Assembly: GCA_963921275.4 (NCBI GenBank)
Contig: OZ001293.3
Coordinates: 1,440,001-1,504,000 of the forward strand
Length of the DNA stretch: 64,000 nucleotides
Reading direction: 5' to 3'
Source of the DNA: an uncultured Hormoscilla sp.
Lineage (GTDB): Bacteria; Cyanobacteriota; Cyanobacteriia; Cyanobacteriales; Desertifilaceae
A program made the translations under genes and the position numbers. Shown here one piece after another: positions 9,599 through 64,000 of the stretch (position 1 is its first letter; every line of letters begins with the position of its first letter). The notes beneath the pieces were generated by a model. That model was given only the letters and a program-made list of their open reading frames with translations, was not told where the DNA came from and did no database searches.

Positions 9599-10070
9599 AA
9601 GCAATTCAAAATTCCAAATTTTGAAACCAATTTTTAAAAAAGCTCTAAGCTTTTCTAGCGCTACGCACGCTACGCTACTTCGTAAGGGGTGCAAATTCAA
9701 TGCACAACAGCTTACCTTGATTATAGCGTTTTTCAAGCTGATGAGGTACAGCATTTCAATCCCCCCAACCCCCCTTTGAAAGCTATGCCTTACTCACATA
9801 TTTCTTAACAATTGTAGCAACAGTCACGATTGGCAAATATGAGTCTATTGTTTTTTCAATAAAACCTATATATTATCAATAAGCCCGCCATTGAATTGGA
9901 TATCTGGTGAAGAGTCAGCTCCTTTTTTGTTTGAGCACAAGTGTTTTGAGTAATTGTACCAGTTCACCACAAGAAATTCTTCTATAAAGTTGTGAACTGG
10001 CACGGTTCATTCAGTTCTACTTCCGGCGCTCAATTGTCAGATAAGGGCCGGACTATTGACGACCGTCCGG

Positions 10071-10194
10071 GCGAGAGAGCGAATTTACACTTATGGAGTT
10101 AAACATACTTTTTCATATTTTGGGACAGAGGCGAGAGAGCGAATTTACACTTATGGAGTTAAACATACTTTTTCATATTTTGGGACAGAGGCGA
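10071..10194. repeat. 60-bp tandem duplication inside the IS4 element
   Basis: Lines 10081 and 10141 are identical through GGCGA. Confidence 0.9.
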
Positions 10195-10199
10195 ATCTA

Positions 10200-11582
10200 G
10201 AGAATCGCTTGAGCTAGAATTCAAGTATCAGCTATGTCATGCAAGCGTCGTAACCCTTGCCAAATAGTTTTCACCCCTGGTTCACCATCCCGTTTTCGTC
10301 CTAAAAAACCACCTAATTTAGCAATCCAATGAATACAAGTCTTTATTGTTGGCGTCGCCTCTAGTGGTGTCGAAGTTTTATTTATCGTGCAGTAAAGAGC
10401 TTGCTACTCATGGGTTTCTAAAATACTATCTGCTGGGGCCTCCGGGTTGTAACGAGCTTCATAAGTAAGCCACAATAATCGCCATGCCACGATTGTATAA
10501 GTGGCTAAAGCCCTTTCAATGCGATCTGTTGTTTCTAGTTGTAGTTGTTCTTTTCGACAACCACTTTTTAGGACATAATGATAACGTTCAATTAACCAAC
10601 GATAGCTATACCAACGCAGGCACCACGTCATCAAAGCCAGTAATCGTCAGCGTCGTTAACAACAACCAGCTAACCCGGTCAACTCCAGAAGGTGGATGCT
10701 CTTCTTCTGCCAGAATTACTTGTATTTTAATTGGCTTTAATGATTTGTAGTGAATATGTGTTTTGGGTGGTTGAATCTCTACCGAAGTGCTACCCAGGGT
10801 TAAGGTTGCTTCGCGAGCCTTTCTCTCGGGATTTTTTGATAATTCTATCGTCACAACTGCTACGGGAGAAACTTTGTAGATAGCTGATTCTAATTTCTCT
10901 ACTTCCTCTGAATCAACTGATTTTACAGAACGGTTCTGATAAGCGCGAATTAGAAGCATGCTCTGAATTCTCAGAGCGAGGCAAGGCCAAAAAATCATAA
11001 ATATCTGCCTCCCGATCCGCCACTGTCACCACTGTAACATCTGATGGTATCACTGCTTCCGTTGCCGATAGCGAGTCCAGCCACCGCTGGCTTTCTTTAT
11101 CTTTTGTTTCTATGAATCTGTCGAGAATGCTTCTTGCCAATATCAGAAATATCCCGTGCCCTGCTGATTTAACACTCAAGGGCGGTACTCCTGTCCCACT
11201 GGTACAAAAAACCGAGTGAACTTTTAGTTCTCGACTGGTTCTACAATTCCATTTGCCCCATTCCTTTTTTACTGGGATGGTGCGTAAAATTTAGTTCGGT
11301 GGTGTCCTGAATTGCTAAAATCGTTTCATGTTGTTTGACTCGGGAGAGCGTACTTTGTTGGTGGCAATCGCGAATCGCTTCCGCTTGAATCTGTGGATTT
11401 GCCCAAAAGTCATTTGTGCTTGGGTCCCTGCCCAATCTCCACAAGCTTGTGGTACCGTAGCATTGGGTTGTTCTGCTAAATCTGATACAATTTTTACCAG
11501 TATGAATGTGGCGACGGCGATCGCCCAAATCAGCAGATTTTAGTTCTTCTGCGGCCCAAGACTTTATATTTTTCTGTCCATG
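10200..11582 (-). pseudogene. IS4-family transposase, frameshifted
   Basis: WAAEELKSADLGDRRR, IQDTTEL, KESQRWL, VADREADIY, WLLLTT, YSYRWLIERYHYVLKSG motifs spread over several frames. Confidence 0.9.
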
Positions 11583-11599
11583 GATAATTTTTGCTCTTG

Positions 11600-12497
11600 G
11601 TTGGGGTCGAGCTGGTACTCGCGTACTAACCCTCCCTTTCGGAACCTGAAGAGCGACTTTCACCGCACACGGCTACTGGTTGGTAAGCCCTTGTCACGAG
11701 TAGGATTACTAAGGGTTACCCCTATTGTCCCTTATTCCCTGAAATTTTGCCCCTTCATGGTCAGTCAATGGACTATTCTTTGTACCTAACTCCGGAAGGT
11801 TCGCGGGGGATAACTAGAAACCACTACAACCGCTCTTTACTAACATTTTACCGTATCTTGGGGCTCTACATTTTTACCCGGTTAGGATTTTAATCCATCA
11901 TCACTACCTAGGATTCCTCCTGATCTAGCACGTTCAGAGGGCTACTACCTCCGAGAACTTCTTACCATATCCGTCCTACGTCTGCATATCCTAAGCATTA
12001 CCCCAGGCATTTGCTTCTTAGGACATCCCTCCCCACGTGACCATTCGCTTCACATCTAACTTGTCCAAACTGGACAGAATCACGGGAGTTACTTCGTTCC
12101 CTGGTATCATTTCACGAGGCTTTTAGGTTTCTCCTATATACCGGCAGTTATTTCGAGTACGATATCAATGAAGCACAAACATTGACACGCTAACTGCTTC
12201 CCTTTTGGGCCAGCGTTACAGCCCTTTTCGCTGGTTTGTATTCACGATACTTACAGAGATTCGCTTGTTCTAACCATGAGCCTCTTTCCTAGCGGAGTCG
12301 CTCCTTTGGGCTAGGTGCTATCCTTCATTTAAGTCCTCGCTTGGCACCACGGCGATGTGGCTCCGCAGCACCTCCGACCGGTGTCACCCCCGTACCTGGG
12401 GGAGGGGAATTTAACCCCCATGATTACCAGAGTTATCTGGCAAATGAAACCAGATCAGACTTTCACCATTACTGGTTTACGTCAGAACGAATCGCAC
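11600..12497 (-). mobile_element. ORF-less group II intron (IIB-like), copy 1
   Basis: 5' GUGCG; D1 closing stem UUCGUUC/GAACGAA; D5-like AGCCGUGUGCGGUGAAAGUCGCUCUUCAGGUU; D6 with bulged A 8 nt from the 3' AC; no RT ORF; boundaries +/-1. Confidence 0.85.
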
Positions 12498-15761: not shown

Positions 15762-15866
15762 ACTGTCGCAACCGGCAATCGCTGTGCCGCAGCCAGCAAC
15801 CATTGTGTCGCAACCGGCAATCGCTGTGCCGCAGCCAGCAACCATTGTGTCGCAACCGGCAACCGC
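15762..15866. repeat. 21/42-nt tandem repeat
   Basis: TGTCGCAACCGGCAATCGCTGTGCCGCAGCCAGCAACCATTG, about 2.5 copies. Confidence 0.85.
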
Positions 15867-16008
15867 TGGGCCGCATTGAGCAAAGCTAGAGTACCAGGGA
15901 GCATCGATGACGCAAGCAAATATATCTGTAGGGGCGGGCGAAGCACTCTGGCAGTATATCTAGGAATAACATGATAAGCGGTTTGACAGAATGCTAGCGA
16001 GGTTGGAA

Positions 16009-17106: not shown

Positions 17107-17261
17107 TTCGTAGTAAGCACTTTAGTCCTTACGCGAGGGAAGCACTAAAGTGCTTACTACAAACCCAAGGGAAGCACTTTAGTGCTTACTACAAACCCAA
17201 AGGAAGCACTAAAGTGCTTACTACAAACCCGAGGGAAGCACTTTAGTGCTTACTACAAACC
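17107..17261. repeat. Tandem array of 32-nt palindromic REP-like units between atpD and atpC
   Basis: GGAAGCACT(AA/TT)AGTGCTTACTACAAACCC x4 plus one inverted partial copy. Confidence 0.9.
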
Positions 17262-17262
17262 A

Positions 17263-18729
<1,467 letters not shown>

Positions 18730-20405: not shown

Positions 20406-22551
20406 TAGTGGTATGTCAAGTAAATAATGACGGATAAGGGAAGAGAACAAAGAGTGAGAAACTATGCCAGCCAAACGATATATAGTTTCCCTAATAGAAG
20501 AAGAACGCCAAAGTCTAGAAAAGCTAACTACAACAGGAAAAGCTGCGGCGAGGAAAATTAATCAGGTCGGGGTCGAGCTGTCCCTCGCGGGACAATCCTC
20601 CCATTCGGAACCTGAAGAGCGACTTTCACCGCACACGGCTACTGGTTGGTAAACCCTTGTCACGGGTAGGATTACTAGGGATTACTCCCGTTGTCCCTTG
20701 CCCTATGAAATATAGCCCCTTTATGGTCAGTCATGAACTAGTTGAGTACCTAACTCCGGAAGGTTTACGGGGGAGAACTAGAAAACCACTATGACCGTTC
20801 TTTACTAACAGGTGCCCGTATGGGGCCTCTAAATTTTTTACCCGGTTAGGATTTCAGTCCATCATTACTACCTAGTGTTGCCACTGGTTAAGCACGTTTA
20901 GAGGGCTACTATCTCCTAGAGCTTTTTACCATATCCGTCCTACGTCTGCATATCCACAGGCATTACCCCGGGCATTAGCTTCTTAGGACCTCCCTCCCCA
21001 CGCGGGCATGCGCTAGGCGCTGCGCGCACACTACGCGGACGCACATCTGACTTGTCCATCTGGACAGCACCGCTCTTGTCCGGAACGTTCCCTGGTATCA
21101 TTTCACGAGGCTTTTAGGTCTCCCCTATACACCGGCAGTCATTTCGGGTACGATATCAGTGACGTGCAACCACTGATACGCGGACTGCGTGCGCATTTTG
21201 CACCAAGCGTGTCAGCCTCTTTTCGCTTGTTTAAGATGACGATGCTTACAGGGATTCGCTTGCTCTAACCATGAGCCTCTTTCCGATCGCGCAGCGTGGC
21301 GCAGCCATGCGGCGTCGGTCTCTGGGCTGAGACCTTATCCTACATTTGTCCTCGGGAGGCACCACGGTAATGTTACTCCGCAGCACCTCACGCGGTCACC
21401 CCCGTACCTGGGGGAAGGGGAATTGAACCCCCATGATGACCAGAGTTGCTGGTATTAACCAGCCCGGCGATCGCCATATTTCAGACTTACGCCAAAACGA
21501 TTCGCACTGCTCGCATCTTACTTAAAGCCGATATTAATCAAACCGATGGAGGGTGGACAGATAGTGAAATTAGCCAAGCTTTGAACATTAGTACCAGAAC
21601 CATTGAAAGAGTTCGACAAAGGTTTGTAGAAGAGGGTTTAGAAAAAGCAATAACCCCCCGTCCCCACCCCTCATCTCAGTTACGGCGTATCGATGGAGAA
21701 GTCGAAGCTCATTTAATTGCATTAGCTTGCAGCCAAGCACCGACTGGGTATAGTCGTTGGACTTTATGACTCCTCGCTGATCAAATGGTAGCTTTAGGAT
21801 ATGTAGAAAGCCTTTCCCATGAAACGGTACGACAGGTATTAAAAAAAAACGAAATTAAACCTTGGTTTCAGGAATGTTGGATAATTACACCTCAAGAAAG
21901 TGCTGAATTTGTCTGTCAGATGGAAGAAGTTTTAGACCTGTACACCCGTGCTTATGATTCAGATTACCCTTTGGTTTGTTTTGATGAATGTTCCAAACAG
22001 TTAATTTCAGAAACGAGAACCCCCATTCCAGCAGAACCTGGGAAACCGGAACGTTTTGACTACGAATATCAGCGAAAGGGAGTCTGTAATCTGTTCATGT
22101 TTTTTGAACCTTTAACCACGGCACGTAGAAGTAACTGACCAACGGACTTCTTACGACTATGCTCACCAGATGAAGTATTTGGTTGATGAATGTTTTCCTC
22201 AAGCGAGGAAGATTCTCGTCGTTCAAGATCATCTTAATACTCATGTGAAAGCTTCTCTATACAAAGCCTTTAGCCCATCGGTAGCTCGTAGAATTCTGGA
22301 TAAGTTAGAATTTCATTACACTCCTAAACATGGCAGTTGGTTGAATATGGCGGAAATCGAGTTAAGTGTCTTACGCCGACAGTGTTTAGACCGAAGGATT
22401 TCCGAGAAGGAGTTTTTAAAAGAAGAAATAGCGGCTTGGGAAAAGCGTAGAAATGAAACCGCTTCGGTTGTAGATTGGCAATTTACCACCGAAGCAGCTC
22501 GAATTAAATTGAAGCAATTATATCCGTCAATTCAATTTTGACAAATCACTA
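20406..22551 (+). mobile_element. IS630-family element; transposase split by an intron and by stops
   Basis: Imperfect inverted repeats TAGTGGTATGTCAA..TGACGGATA / TATCCGTCAA..TTGACAAATCACTA; CTAG at both ends; CFDE, QDHLNTH, TPKHGSWLNMAEIE; A-run frameshift site at 21841. Confidence 0.92.
20566..21507 (-). mobile_element. ORF-less group II intron (IIB-like), copy 2, antisense within the IS630 transposase
   Basis: 5' GUGCG at 21507; D5 identical to copy 1; D6 ending GAC; colinear with copy 1; splits ...ARKIN / ARILLKAD. Confidence 0.87.
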
Positions 22552-42423: not shown

Positions 42424-45400
42424 TTACCAAGGGTTACCAATCATCGTGAAAGCCGACCAGAAGTAAGGATGGGATAGAGATGTCTGTTGAATGCCTCTGA
42501 GAGTTGGGGGTAAAGAGATGCCTTCTGCTACTGCTGGCAGATGCAGGCGATCGCCCTCGAAATGGATGCGCCCAGAAATCATCGCCATCTGGGCCTGGCG
42601 CAGGGCCTCTGCCTTAATAGGTGCATTTTTCAGCTGTCCGTAAAACTCCGTCATCAGCCCCAATGTCCCCTCATCACTTACATACCATAAAGAAGCCAAA
42701 ACCGACTTAACTCCCGCGTTCACCGCAAACCCAGCAAAACCAAACTCCGCCTCCTCATTACCGAAGGCTGTCTGGCAAGCACTCAGCACCACCAAATCCA
42801 CTTGCAGTTTATCCCAACCCACCTGTTCCATTTGGTCTAAATGTAGCTTCCGATCGGACCACAACTGAATATAAGAATTACTGAGGGCACCCGGGCGGAA
42901 CTCCGCGTGGGTAGCGAGGTGAATTATCCCATAAGACCCTTTATGTAGTTGGCTTTTCAGATTAGCGAAAGTAAAAGCCTGGTTCAAGAAAGATTCGCCT
43001 CCCCACTCCTGCGCGATCTTCTTTATCTCTATTGGCACCGCTGGCAAGGGACCATGTTCCAGAAATTCCGAGGCCCCCATTGCCAGCAGATTCTTTTTCT
43101 TGACATCCACATAGCTAGCATCAGATAGGGTCAAGCTGGGCATCAGACCAAAGCTATATTGCTGCACCAGAAACTCCTCACCATCATGCAGGGCAGCTAT
43201 TGGCAGAGAACGCAACCCCCCATCCATGATGAAAACTAAATTCTGGACCCCGAGTCCTTGCAAATCAGCCCGGAGTGGTTGGATCATCCACTGGTAAAGT
43301 TGTTGGGCTGAGGGTAGATAGCTAGTAGTATCAATTTTTCTCCGATTTGTGACTTCTCGATAGAACTCCTGAGTTGTGGACATCACGCGCGATCGGGTAG
43401 CCTCTTTAATTCTATAGCGGATTGGCAGACCCTCCGCCGTCACCAGCATCAACTCCAAATGGTCTGACTCCATCTTGGGCCCTGATTTTCCCAGCCGATT
43501 TTTCCGGAACGGTGTATTTTCCCAGATTAACTCAGATTCCCCTTCCCTTTTTTCCATCCCATCCTTTTGCTGGCTGGGCACAAAACTGATATAGATAATC
43601 CCTGGCCTTACCTTAATGGATTGCTCAATTTTACCCAGAAAATGGCGCGCATCATCCAGAGTCCGCACTTTGTACTTGTCAGAAGGTATCTGTAAATACT
43701 CGGCAAACTGATTTGTGAACTCCTCTTCCCGTTCAGAAGCCATCCTGTATAATTCCCGATCGCTCCCAGTGGCATTCTGGAAGAATATGCTGTCCACAGA
43801 CCCTATTGATGATGTTTCCTCTTCTGAGGCCGATCGCCCCATCACCTCTTCCTCGGAGCTTGGATCTGCCTGGGTATCTGGTTCTGTCTGGAGGTCAGCA
43901 GTTTCAGTCTCCTCCTTACCTGGCTCCCGCCTGGTAACCTCTTCTGAGACTGGAACATCATCCGACACTACTTCCTCTTGTGGCGGTAAGTTTTCATCTG
44001 GTTCTGTCTGGAGGTCAGCAGTTTCAGTCTCCTCCTTACCTGGCTCCCGCCTGGTAACCTCTTCTGAGACTGGAACATCATCCGACACTACTTCCTCTTG
44101 TGGCGGTAAGTTTTCATCTGGTTCAATTAAATCGTCAGTATCTAAAACCACTTCTGGTTCGGTACTTGGTTCAGAATCTTCTGATACTGGCGGTTCAGAG
44201 ATAGTGGGTGAAGGTTCTTCTTCTGGGGACAAATCTACTTCTCCTGGCGGCTCTTCTGATAGATCCTCAGGAGGATCGGTTATTTCTTCCCCTAGCATTA
44301 AATCTTCCTCTGGTGGCGCGAGTAGGGTCGGGTCTTCTTCTTCTGGCGGCGGTAGATTTTCTTCCCCTAGCGGTATCCCTGGACTGTTTGTTTCGATCGT
44401 AATATTTCCCAAGTTGCTCGTACCAGTAAAAGATTGGGATGGTTCCATCGTAAACTCTCCACTGGTAATCGCAGCAGCTGTGCCTAATATCTGAGCATCT
44501 CCGATATGAAAAGGTTCAAACTGACTCGCGCCTGTGTGACGAATGGCGATCGTCCCACCTCCCGTTCCACCTGCTGTAGAAATACTTGCCTCATTGGTGC
44601 TAGCAGCGGATGTTTCAAACCGACCTGTTGCCCGGAATAAGCTACCTGTGATGGCAACATCCCCTCCGAGGCCCTCTGACCCCCCTTCTGCATTAATAAA
44701 TTCAACAGAGACATCACCACCCGTCAGACTCACATTGCCACCATTTCCCAGCTCAGCATTCGTATTTATTTGTCCAGTTGTAATTTCCCCATCGGCCCCT
44801 ATAGATATCTGTCCGCCTTGACCTTGTCCTCTAGCATTGAGATTACCTGTTTGTACCGTTCCCATCTGTGCTTGACTCGTAACATCCCCTCCATTCCCAA
44901 CAACTCCAGAGCTGTCTATATCACCAGTATTTATACTTCCCCCAGTACTCTGTAGAACGATCGCCCCACCATTATATCCCGAACTCGAAATAATACTTGT
45001 TCCTGTAATAATGTCCCCTGCTGCTACCATGTCAATGGTTCCTCCATCACCGGAAGCAGAGCTGGAGATTATTTCCCCTGTAATGGTATCAATTTTCCCA
45101 TTTGTCGTGTTTATGGGGATGTTTCCTCCCCGTCCGCTACCCCCAGAACTGGAGTTAATTGCACCTGTAATCACGTCACCCCTGGCCGTTGCTGTTATTG
45201 CTCCTCCCTCACCTATATTCCCCCTCGATATCAGGCTTCCAGAGCTTGTATCAATATTCCCGCCGCTATTGAGAGTAATATCGCCTCCCCTGTTCTGTCC
45301 GCTGCTATCCAGGTGAAGAGTGTTAATATTACCCCCACTATCAAGTGTAATATTTCCTCCCTCACCAGAAACCGAGACCGCATTGAGCCTTGTTCCTGGT

Positions 45401-63624: not shown

Positions 63625-64000
63625 TTAGGTTTCTGATGCTGCTTCTTCCTCCGAGGAGGCTACATCTGACTCTTCACTGACTGATGCTGCTTCTTCCTCC
63701 GAGGACGTGACATCTGAAACTTCTAAAGAGGTGTCTGATTTTGCCTCATCCGGCGTAGTTTCAATCACCTCCGAGACGCTTTCTTCCTCCGAGGAGGCTA
63801 CATCTGACTCTTCACTGACTGATGCTGCTTCTTCCTCCGAGGACGTGACATCTGAAACTTCTGGAGAGGTGTCTGATTTTGCCTCATCCGGCGTAGTTTC
63901 AATCACCTCCGGGACGCTAATCACTTCTTCTGGGCCTGAACTTTTTTCGACTTCCACATTGTTGCAGACCGCGATCGCCCAGAGCATGATTCCCGCTAGC
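63625..64000 (-). CDS. Acidic repeat protein, probable lipoprotein; start lies beyond the window
   Basis: Frame is open to the window edge (LAGIMLWAIAVCNN); 138-bp internal repeat; rich in E and S. Confidence 0.55.
   Translation of the reverse strand, partial: LAGIMLWAIAVCNNVEVEKSSGPEEVISVPEVIETTPDEAKSDTSPEVSDVTSSEEEAASVSEESDVASSEEESVSEVIETTPDEAKSDTSLEVSDVTSSEEEAASVSEESDVASSEEEAASET

Follow-up and report, generated by a model that had tools for sequence, protein, structure and literature searches.

The question raised by the locus described here is why a group II intron that carries no open reading frame (ORF) should retain a large domain IV (D4), and whether that domain is a structured RNA in its own right or what is left of a decayed ORF. 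The window, by which we mean the whole 64,000-nt stretch of DNA that was analyzed, comes from an uncultured Hormoscilla sp. (assembly GCA_963921275.4, contig OZ001293.3, positions 1,440,001 to 1,504,000), and it contains two such introns, both complete and both read from the minus strand. Copy 1 (11600..12497, 898 nt) starts with GUGCGAUUCG at 12497 and ends with ...GACCCCAAC at 11600, limits that were read directly and by alignment with copy 2 and with hundreds of genomic copies; copy 2 (20566..21507, 942 nt) starts with GUGCGAAUCG at 21507 and lies antisense inside an IS630-like transposase gene. Both have the GUGYG 5' end with which the reverse transcriptase (RT)-encoding introns of this genome also begin. 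Their D4s, delimited by helix coordinates from structure and covariation, occupy 11681..11967 (287 nt, copy 1) and 20647..20931 (285 nt, copy 2), and each is a stem that lies between D3 and D5 and closes off a variable interior, giving the six-domain arrangement of a group II intron, with D1-D3 and D5-D6 homologous to those of hundreds of genomic copies. An earlier note, made from the letters of the window, had placed a conserved, covarying RNA here; the feature is real at the coordinates it gave, and the data support D4 as a covarying RNA structure under structural selection.

Because the whole introns of copies 1 and 2 are 86% identical over 1028 aligned columns, flanks included, these two copies prove little by themselves. 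We have therefore relied on an alignment of 35 distinct long-type D4s (those homologous to the window copies over their full length), comprising the 2 window copies and 33 other loci, with a mean column identity of 66%; two loci whose 3' end is rearranged and a third that is identical to copy 2 were left out. The structure predicted by RNAalifold has 12 helices with 56 pairs in all, 33 of which have changed on both sides, as compared to 19.0 ± 2.1 in shuffled alignments, none of 500 shuffles reaching as high. Within the predicted structure 97.0% of the cells are paired, against 87.1% in the shuffles. When the 3' partners are moved by 1-3 columns, a control that preserves the relatedness of the sequences, only 32-54% of cells remain paired (maximum 53.9%) and 6-11 pairs are doubly changed. 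The two-sided changes are spread over successive helices (6 of 7 pairs in H1, 8 of 10 in H2, 3 of 5 in H3, 3 of 4 in H4) and many pairs occur as 3-5 different standard pair types. Long single-stranded stretches, UGUUAGUAAAGAGCGG and ACCUUCCGGAG among them, are invariant, and the length of the H7 hairpin loop varies freely. Together with the central domains of congeneric species considered below, these results bear out the earlier claim of a conserved, covarying RNA.

Three results must be set on the other side. When all column pairs are scanned naively, 94 that do not belong to the model show 4 or more double changes, so that isolated apparent covariation evidently arises from clade structure alone, and for this reason the case for covariation rests on contiguous stacked helices and on the slide control. 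Single-sequence folding energies are no better than those of shuffled sequences (z = +1.65 for copy 1 and -1.02 for copy 2). Finally, mean identities calculated with one representative for each of 14 clusters (0.665 for D4, 0.597 for D1-D3 and 0.810 for D5-D6) come from a comparison that is biased, the group having been chosen by D4 similarity.

The anatomy of the domain is most easily followed in copy 1, all coordinates referring to the minus strand. The basal stem H1 pairs UGGUAAG (11967-11961) with CUUACCA (11687-11681), and in copy 2 it reads UGGUAAA/UUUACCA (20931-20925 / 20653-20647), a compensatory change. Next come the long outer stem H2 (11958-11948 with 11744-11734) and the long-range helix H3, GCCCU/GGGGC (11942-11938 with 11753-11749; 20906-20902 with 20719-20715 in copy 2), which together span 11734..11958 and enclose the interior. 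Inside them is H4, a small hairpin with a GNRA-type loop, AGGA-GGAA-UCCU at 11910..11921 in copy 1 and AGUG-GCAA-CACU at 20874..20885 in copy 2, followed by a central domain (11785..11886; 20749..20850 in copy 2) folded as a three-way junction of H5 (CCUAAC/GUUAGG), H6 (GGGU/ACCU), the variable-loop hairpin H7 and H8 (GCGG/CCGC), and by H9 (11775-11762). The 3' arm (11688..11732) is made up of the H10/H11 hairpin with its GUAA loop (11732-11702) and of H12, CUC-GUGACAA-GGG (11700-11688); the stem below the GUAA loop is AGGG/CCCU in copy 1 (11723-11712) versus GGGA/UCCC in copy 2 (20689-20678). The basal stem, the two compensatory hairpins and the long-range helix picked out in the earlier note correspond, respectively, to H1, to H4 and H11, and to H3. 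Of the two sequence blocks that it called invariant, AACCUUCCGGAGUUAGGUAC is indeed identical in both copies, whereas AAAUCCUAACCGGGUAAAAA, although common to both, differs by one base in its A-run, so that the string as written is that of copy 2 only.

In order to place the window copies within their family we searched the 7.03 Mb genome with copy 1 using blastn, obtaining 789 high-scoring segment pairs that cover D1-D3 about 385-410 times and D5-D6 about 370-380 times, with coverage of only about 84-110 over the D4 interior. Pairing of D3 and D5 anchors defines 339 elements, of which 318 are ORF-less since their D3-to-D5 interval is below 450 nt. Among these 318 elements there are 124 unique sequences, which fall into 36 clusters at 88% identity, and 14 of the clusters have a D4 of the long type. 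A profile of the D4 interior (nhmmer) matches 392 places in the genome, 83 over the full length and 309 in part, nearly all of the latter being the 3' end. No free-standing D4 was found among these matches, all 392 of which sit in an intron context (partly read by eye); 32 of them have no simple D5 anchor and show, by eye, either a variant D5 downstream or an interruption of the match itself by another insertion. The 3' arm (H10-H12) is common to all subfamilies, and the two majority subfamilies (140 + 76 = 216 copies) keep H1-H3 and the 3' arm around a different central domain with its own pairings, as judged by eye. The central domain of the window type is restricted to about 83 copies, and inspection also reveals low-copy variants (1-4 copies each) that have no central domain at all. 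The D3-to-D5 interval is 307-344 nt in the two high-copy subfamilies, as against 234-272 nt in variants with 1-4 copies.

Members of the family are group II introns of the IIB/chloroplast-like class and not of class IIA, as judged by Rfam matches to D5 and by the 5' sequence GUGCGAUUC. With the Rfam model Intron_gpII (RF00029, gathering score 40) sibling ORF-less copies score 44-48 bits, and siblings and RT-encoding relatives taken together 44-60 bits. The genome also holds 75 GIIM and 93 RVT_1 matches and 79 5' ends of RT introns, so that a source of intron-encoded protein (IEP) in trans does exist. The intron load is very high, with about 390 ribozyme copies and several twintrons (for example C1:6623260-6625921, C1:1143738-1147400 and C1:2406679-2409920). 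One majority-type ORF-less intron apparently lies inside domain I of an RT intron, and RT ORFs and intron matches recur side by side at several other loci.

Outside this genome, BLAST finds D4 in all four of the other species of the genus that were searched and in none of 36 genomes of other genera. A covariance model of the central domain (133 positions, 22 pairs) was run under strict filters, with 22 candidates scored per genome, over 151 genomes of the order. The only positives were the genome itself and the one sampled congener, with no match in the other 79 genera sampled. The loci of four congeneric species provide 17 central-domain matches, 16 of them distinct, that have been fitted to the covariance model; in this alignment 91.3% of cells are paired and 17 of the 22 pairs are doubly changed. 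The fold is thus recovered from homologs in congeners, as the earlier note's covariance proposal would have it, and among the genomes searched the central three-way junction is genus-restricted. A signature pattern, scanned over all species genomes, gave at least 116 stretches, none of the 80 that were checked matching the D4 profile; these hits were rejected as chance matches to a pattern that is too loose.

Is D4 then the remainder of an RT gene? There is no IEP ORF in it, the longest stop-free stretch being 47-76 codons in any frame, and an origin of the bulk of D4 as an RT pseudogene was rejected, tblastn giving nothing at E < 0.08. With one RT frame of 609 codons as query, the best E value among the 124 unique D3-to-D5 segments is 0.085; one RT gives 0.23 and 1.2 on the window copies, and 20 RT ORFs taken from different lineages give at best 0.14 on 37 long-type D4s, these last matches falling mostly on the wrong strand. 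The 609-codon frame (Met about 16 codons in) runs through domain V of its own intron and stops in domain VI (L012/L014; C1:6623488-6626000), and because of this the RT C-terminus matches every D5 spuriously in tblastn. The weak matches to RT residues 559-583 do fall on domain V of the segments.

The only sense-strand match among the 20 RT ORFs pairs the first residues of one RT lineage with a long-type subfamily that we denote c6. Positions 36-75 of the c6 D4 match the AUG region of a resident RT intron, the AUG included, at 80% identity over 40 nt, and across 20 RT loci there are 12 forward matches in D4 positions 22-79, with none in a reversed-sequence control; seven further matches at the 3' end were set aside as belonging to an outer intron. 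Through this c6 homology H4 can be equated with the hairpin that RT-encoding introns carry just after the IEP start codon, a DIVa-like position, and the latter hairpin itself changes in a compensatory manner among RT introns (CGAU/AUCG, CGGC/GCCG, GUC/GAC, by eye). H12 recurs as CCC-AUGACAA-GGG in the C-terminal coding region of RT introns, just before domain V. As for traces of the two ORF ends flanking a deletion, the homology is significant in c6, is present for H12 and is not significant in the window copies, with no shared breakpoint definable. The origin of D4 appears to be tied in part to the ends of the ORF and so not to be independent of it. At the homologous place in the window copies (about 11935-11930 in copy 1) there is no AUG. 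By eye the first ~110 nt of the long-type D4 had seemed to run collinear with the opening ~25 codons of the RT, but the alignments and profile searches did not bear this out in the window copies, and it is kept for c6 only. The earlier description of D4 as structured RNA rather than a decayed ORF consequently stands for its bulk, in which tblastn detects no RT coding remnant, and has to be amended for H4 (via c6) and H12, which trace to the ORF ends of RT introns.

The window copies themselves have an unusual domain V (11643..11674 in copy 1 and 20609..20640 in copy 2, minus strand), a variant with the composition AGCCGUGU GCGGUGAAAGUCGC UC UUCAGGUU in which three of the nine lower-helix pairs of a canonical domain V are broken; the canonical form measures about 34 nt and has an AGC triad, a GNRA loop, a 2-nt bulge and a lower helix that is paired throughout. 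The AGC triad and GAAA loop are kept, with GUCGC-UC-UUCAGGUU opposite AGCCGUGU, and copy 2 has the same mispaired form. The variant (the UCUUCAGG form, GUCGC-UC-UUYAGGUU) is found at 32 places in the genome and once each in two congeners. Its 3' strand occurs with several 5' strands and pairs well only with AGCCUGGU, present in one copy; variant D5s are possibly chimeras produced by template switching or recombination. Copies with the variant fail Intron_gpII: the window copies give no RF00029 match at E ≤ 1 and reach no Rfam threshold, and a twin identical to copy 2 in locus L012 has no Intron_gpII match at E ≤ 0.1 at a place where the neighboring introns do match. We attribute these missing matches to the variant domain V; since siblings score above the gathering score, the family is group II and the two window copies are members with a non-canonical domain V.

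The ORF-less copies appear to have moved recently. Copy 2 is accompanied in the genome by seven other full-length copies that are 96.5-99.8% identical to it and lie behind different flanks sharing a GTAAGA motif, and by one 602-nt piece, so that this lineage, its mispaired domain V notwithstanding, has eight near-identical full-length members at different sites. Some insertions are into other introns: one copy-2-type intron follows GGUAAGAAGCCUUGGG in the 5' strand of H2 of another intron's D4, one ORF-less intron has an RT intron in the H11 loop of its D4, and in five identical composites the D4 of one intron is interrupted after H10/H11 by a second. In the window, copy 2 splits the 5' part of the IS630-like transposase gene (MPAKRYIVSLIEEERQSLEKL..., 20464..20565, plus strand, from the ORF list), which continues past the intron with HTH_32/HTH_29 (21446-21766) and DDE_3 (22170-22538) matches on the plus strand; as the intron is inserted antisense it cannot be spliced from the transposase mRNA. 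No reading frame spans the junction of copy 1, and downstream of it (11244-11588, minus strand) there is a weak, below-cut-off Tnp_DNA_bind match. Relative to copy 1, copy 2 contains in D1-D3 two extra GC-rich insertions, one of ~22 nt (alignment columns 241-262, near 21260-21290 of the window) and one of ~26 nt (columns 509-534, near 20990-21030). In other copies D3 or D4 is broken by comparable GC-rich palindromic inserts, some of them with GCGATCGC, for example over 24 nt in locus L042; they look like small dispersed palindromic elements.

How does this domain compare with those already described? Rfam 15 returns no D4 match at gathering thresholds in the 64-kb window, nothing for D4 at E ≤ 1 over 12.5 kb, and only snoRNA noise (E 4.4-7.9) for D4 alone at E ≤ 10. 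Our search of the literature, in text available outside subscription journals and seen in part, found no described D4 fold of this kind. The closest precedent in the accessible text is provided by the TeI3 introns of Thermosynechococcus elongatus, which likewise are non-autonomous derivatives of RT introns with a retained, covarying D4: they are ORF-less, were mobilized by the IEPs of sister introns and proliferated, they retain DIVa and the ends of the ORF in a branched D4 (DIVa1, DIVa2, DIVb) with covarying loops, and they are often inserted in other introns or in insertion sequence (IS) elements, insertion into the D4 of other introns being a known general habit (PMC2882425). The earlier note's statement that the motif was unrecognized hence holds as far as Rfam families are concerned, and fails in so far as the retention of D4 elements with covarying loops was known from TeI3 (PMC2882425). 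The two systems differ in several respects. In TeI3 the N- and C-terminal ORF remnants are clear and share one breakpoint in all 17 copies, according to the same portion of that report (PMC2882425), whereas here there are ~40-70 nt at the 5' side, significant in one subfamily, and one 3' hairpin; there are hundreds of copies here versus the 17 of TeI3 (PMC2882425). Moreover, the ~100 nt of the central three-way junction have no counterpart in the resident RT introns and at least two alternative central domains are in use here.

A large D4 is also not unusual in this group, given that the accessible text on Trichodesmium IIB introns, which have the same 5' consensus GUGCGAUUC, reports D4s of 215 nt and 317 nt besides the IEP ORF (PMC4649490); those introns still carry the ORF, and that part of the report gives no covariation-supported model of D4. 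The copy number has a parallel in Arthrospira platensis, with at least 150 group II introns, 71 with and 79 without RT (PMC2853384), or 101 introns by a later pipeline (PMC8919778), a load on the scale of hundreds in which RT-encoding and ORF-less copies occur alike; the portions of these papers available to us count elements and leave D4 undescribed. What is new, then, is that the retention of D4 elements, already known for non-autonomous introns, takes a more elaborate form here, with a central domain that among the genomes searched is restricted to a genus.

We turn to what D4 might do. In Ll.LtrB and in the yeast IIA introns the IEP binds with high affinity to DIVa, a stem-loop located where the intron ORF begins. 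H4 resembles it as a small hairpin in the place adjoining the IEP start codon, with compensatory changes in both ORF-less and RT-encoding introns; it differs in that the DIVa systems are IIA while the present introns are IIB/chloroplast-like, and that the window copies have no AUG. The earlier note had named a platform recruiting an RT in trans, which is plausible, alongside a possible folding scaffold in place of the maturase. We propose that D4 is a retained and elaborated platform for an RT/maturase (the IEP) supplied in trans, an interpretation that we regard as about evenly poised, and that the module is probably kept because these introns depend on the RTs of other introns. D4 would then be a composite selected handle through which IEPs from other introns bind, fold, splice and mobilize these RNAs, with IEP binding and any effect on mobility being what we infer from the comparisons above. 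It has three layers. An outer frame of H1-H3 and the 3' arm H10-H12 are common to all of the ~390 family members; H4, presumably descended from the hairpin right after the IEP start codon of ORF-containing relatives, occupies the place of DIVa, the high-affinity IEP site of the introns that have been studied; and the central three-way junction H5-H8 (~100 nt) would be an added module for stabilization or contact. Since these introns have no protein of their own and yet have moved, and in view of the role of DIVa, which the accessible text describes as a critical IEP-binding region, it is most economical to suppose that what sister IEPs recognize, namely the post-AUG hairpin and the frame, has been kept in D4 (PMC2882425).

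Against such a platform several results must be counted. By local alignment the 5' part of the window-type D4s shows no significant similarity to RT introns (z ≤ 1), an RT 5' profile has only one match among the long-type D4s (E = 0.95), and nhmmer with the long-type D4 finds nothing in one RT-intron lineage and, in the other, a match at E = 0.0018 and 4.0 bits limited to profile positions 15-88. By the same method and in the same two lineages the central domain, the largest part of D4, has no counterpart in RT introns. This domain cannot be a universal requirement for IEP action since the two most abundant subfamilies (216 copies) use a different fold. With domain V mispaired, the window copies may in addition not be catalytically competent. 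The existence of two alternative cassettes disfavors a universal, sequence-specific role and fits both a generic structural role and lineage-specific recognition of a driver. Along the second line, the central domain could be a lineage-specific RNA invention made after loss of the ORF that docks a trans-acting RT or host factor, the specificity for the driver residing in a swappable D4 cassette; we offer this as a tentative and rather doubtful extension of the platform.

Along the first, D4 may be a protein-independent module, a compact structure that protects the excised RNA from nucleases or aids folding of the core, with no specific IEP contact beyond its basal part. Compactness of ORF-less introns has, in the accessible text on TeI3, been linked to nuclease resistance and higher mobility (PMC2882425), and two central folds of similar size in the same place in different subfamilies, as well as the free variation of the H7 loop, point to a generic role of this kind. 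A short hairpin, however, would be more compact still, yet deletion variants are rare; the invariant single-stranded blocks UGUUAGUAAAGAGCGG and ACCUUCCGGAG suggest specific contacts, and the stabilities of single sequences are no better than those of shuffles. On balance we consider a purely structural role unlikely, if worth keeping in mind. Rather less probable is a function separate from the intron, as a nested small RNA or ribozyme or as a landing pad for other introns. Introns do sit inside D4s (in the H2 strand, in the H11 loop and after H10/H11), but only 2 of the 79 RT-intron 5' ends lie in a D4, the flanks of the others being diverse, and we rejected D4 as a homing site of RT introns on these grounds; insertion into the D4 of others is in any case the general habit already mentioned (PMC2882425, accessible text). 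That every profile match is in an intron context (partly by eye) and that Rfam has no match also argue against an independent function, and we found no evidence for the nested ribozyme that the earlier note had suggested. Finally, D4 could be a neutral leftover of ORF loss whose apparent conservation reflects recent common ancestry, given that the window copies are 86% identical throughout and not in D4 alone, that clade structure generates many isolated pseudo-covariations and that parts of D4 do descend from the ORF ends. This explanation is strongly disfavored and we think it most improbable: 97% of cells pair at a mean column identity of 66%, many pairs take 3-5 standard forms, slid partners fall to 32-54% paired, the fold is preserved in other species and D4 is no more diverged than D1-D3.

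The window contains other repeats that we record here for completeness. Between 29889 and 51958 hairpins of 40-50 nt recur at scattered sites in 3-6 copies (repeat families D2, D10, D11, D15 and D19), one example having GTGTCTCCTGGG...CCCAGGAGACAC about a GTGCGATTAGCGC core, and at 17122-17281 tandem 32-nt units form alternating hairpins (AAGCACTAAAGTGCTT). The Rfam matches MIR395 and mir-2076 at 17159-17258 are spurious products of this tandem hairpin repeat, MIR395 scoring 28.7 bits relative to a gathering score of 56. Further repeats are found at 1034-2607, 10070-10189, 15764-15889, 43876-44115 and 63643-63918; among them are an exact repeat of 300 nt whose copies are 1274 nt apart, tandem duplications that are exact over 60 nt and 120 nt and 98% identical over 138 nt, and repeats with a 21-nt period.

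Returning to the platform reading of D4, were the domain only a stabilizing stem it would be an ordinary and well-documented case of structure retention in a retroelement. The covariation-supported model provides boundaries for deletion and swap work, and the lineage with a mispaired domain V that has apparently moved is an oddity that can be tested. If the central domain is a docking cassette, it would bear on how non-autonomous introns reach hundreds of copies, lineages with a mispaired domain V among them. With its hundreds of ORF-less copies, dozens of RT genes, universal D4 frame and at least two constrained cassettes the genome amounts to a natural experiment, and if the cassettes set which protein drives which lineage then the recognition code of the system would reside in D4. 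Recruitment of RTs in trans by non-autonomous introns bears, in turn, on how a shared splicing machinery may have evolved from selfish introns.

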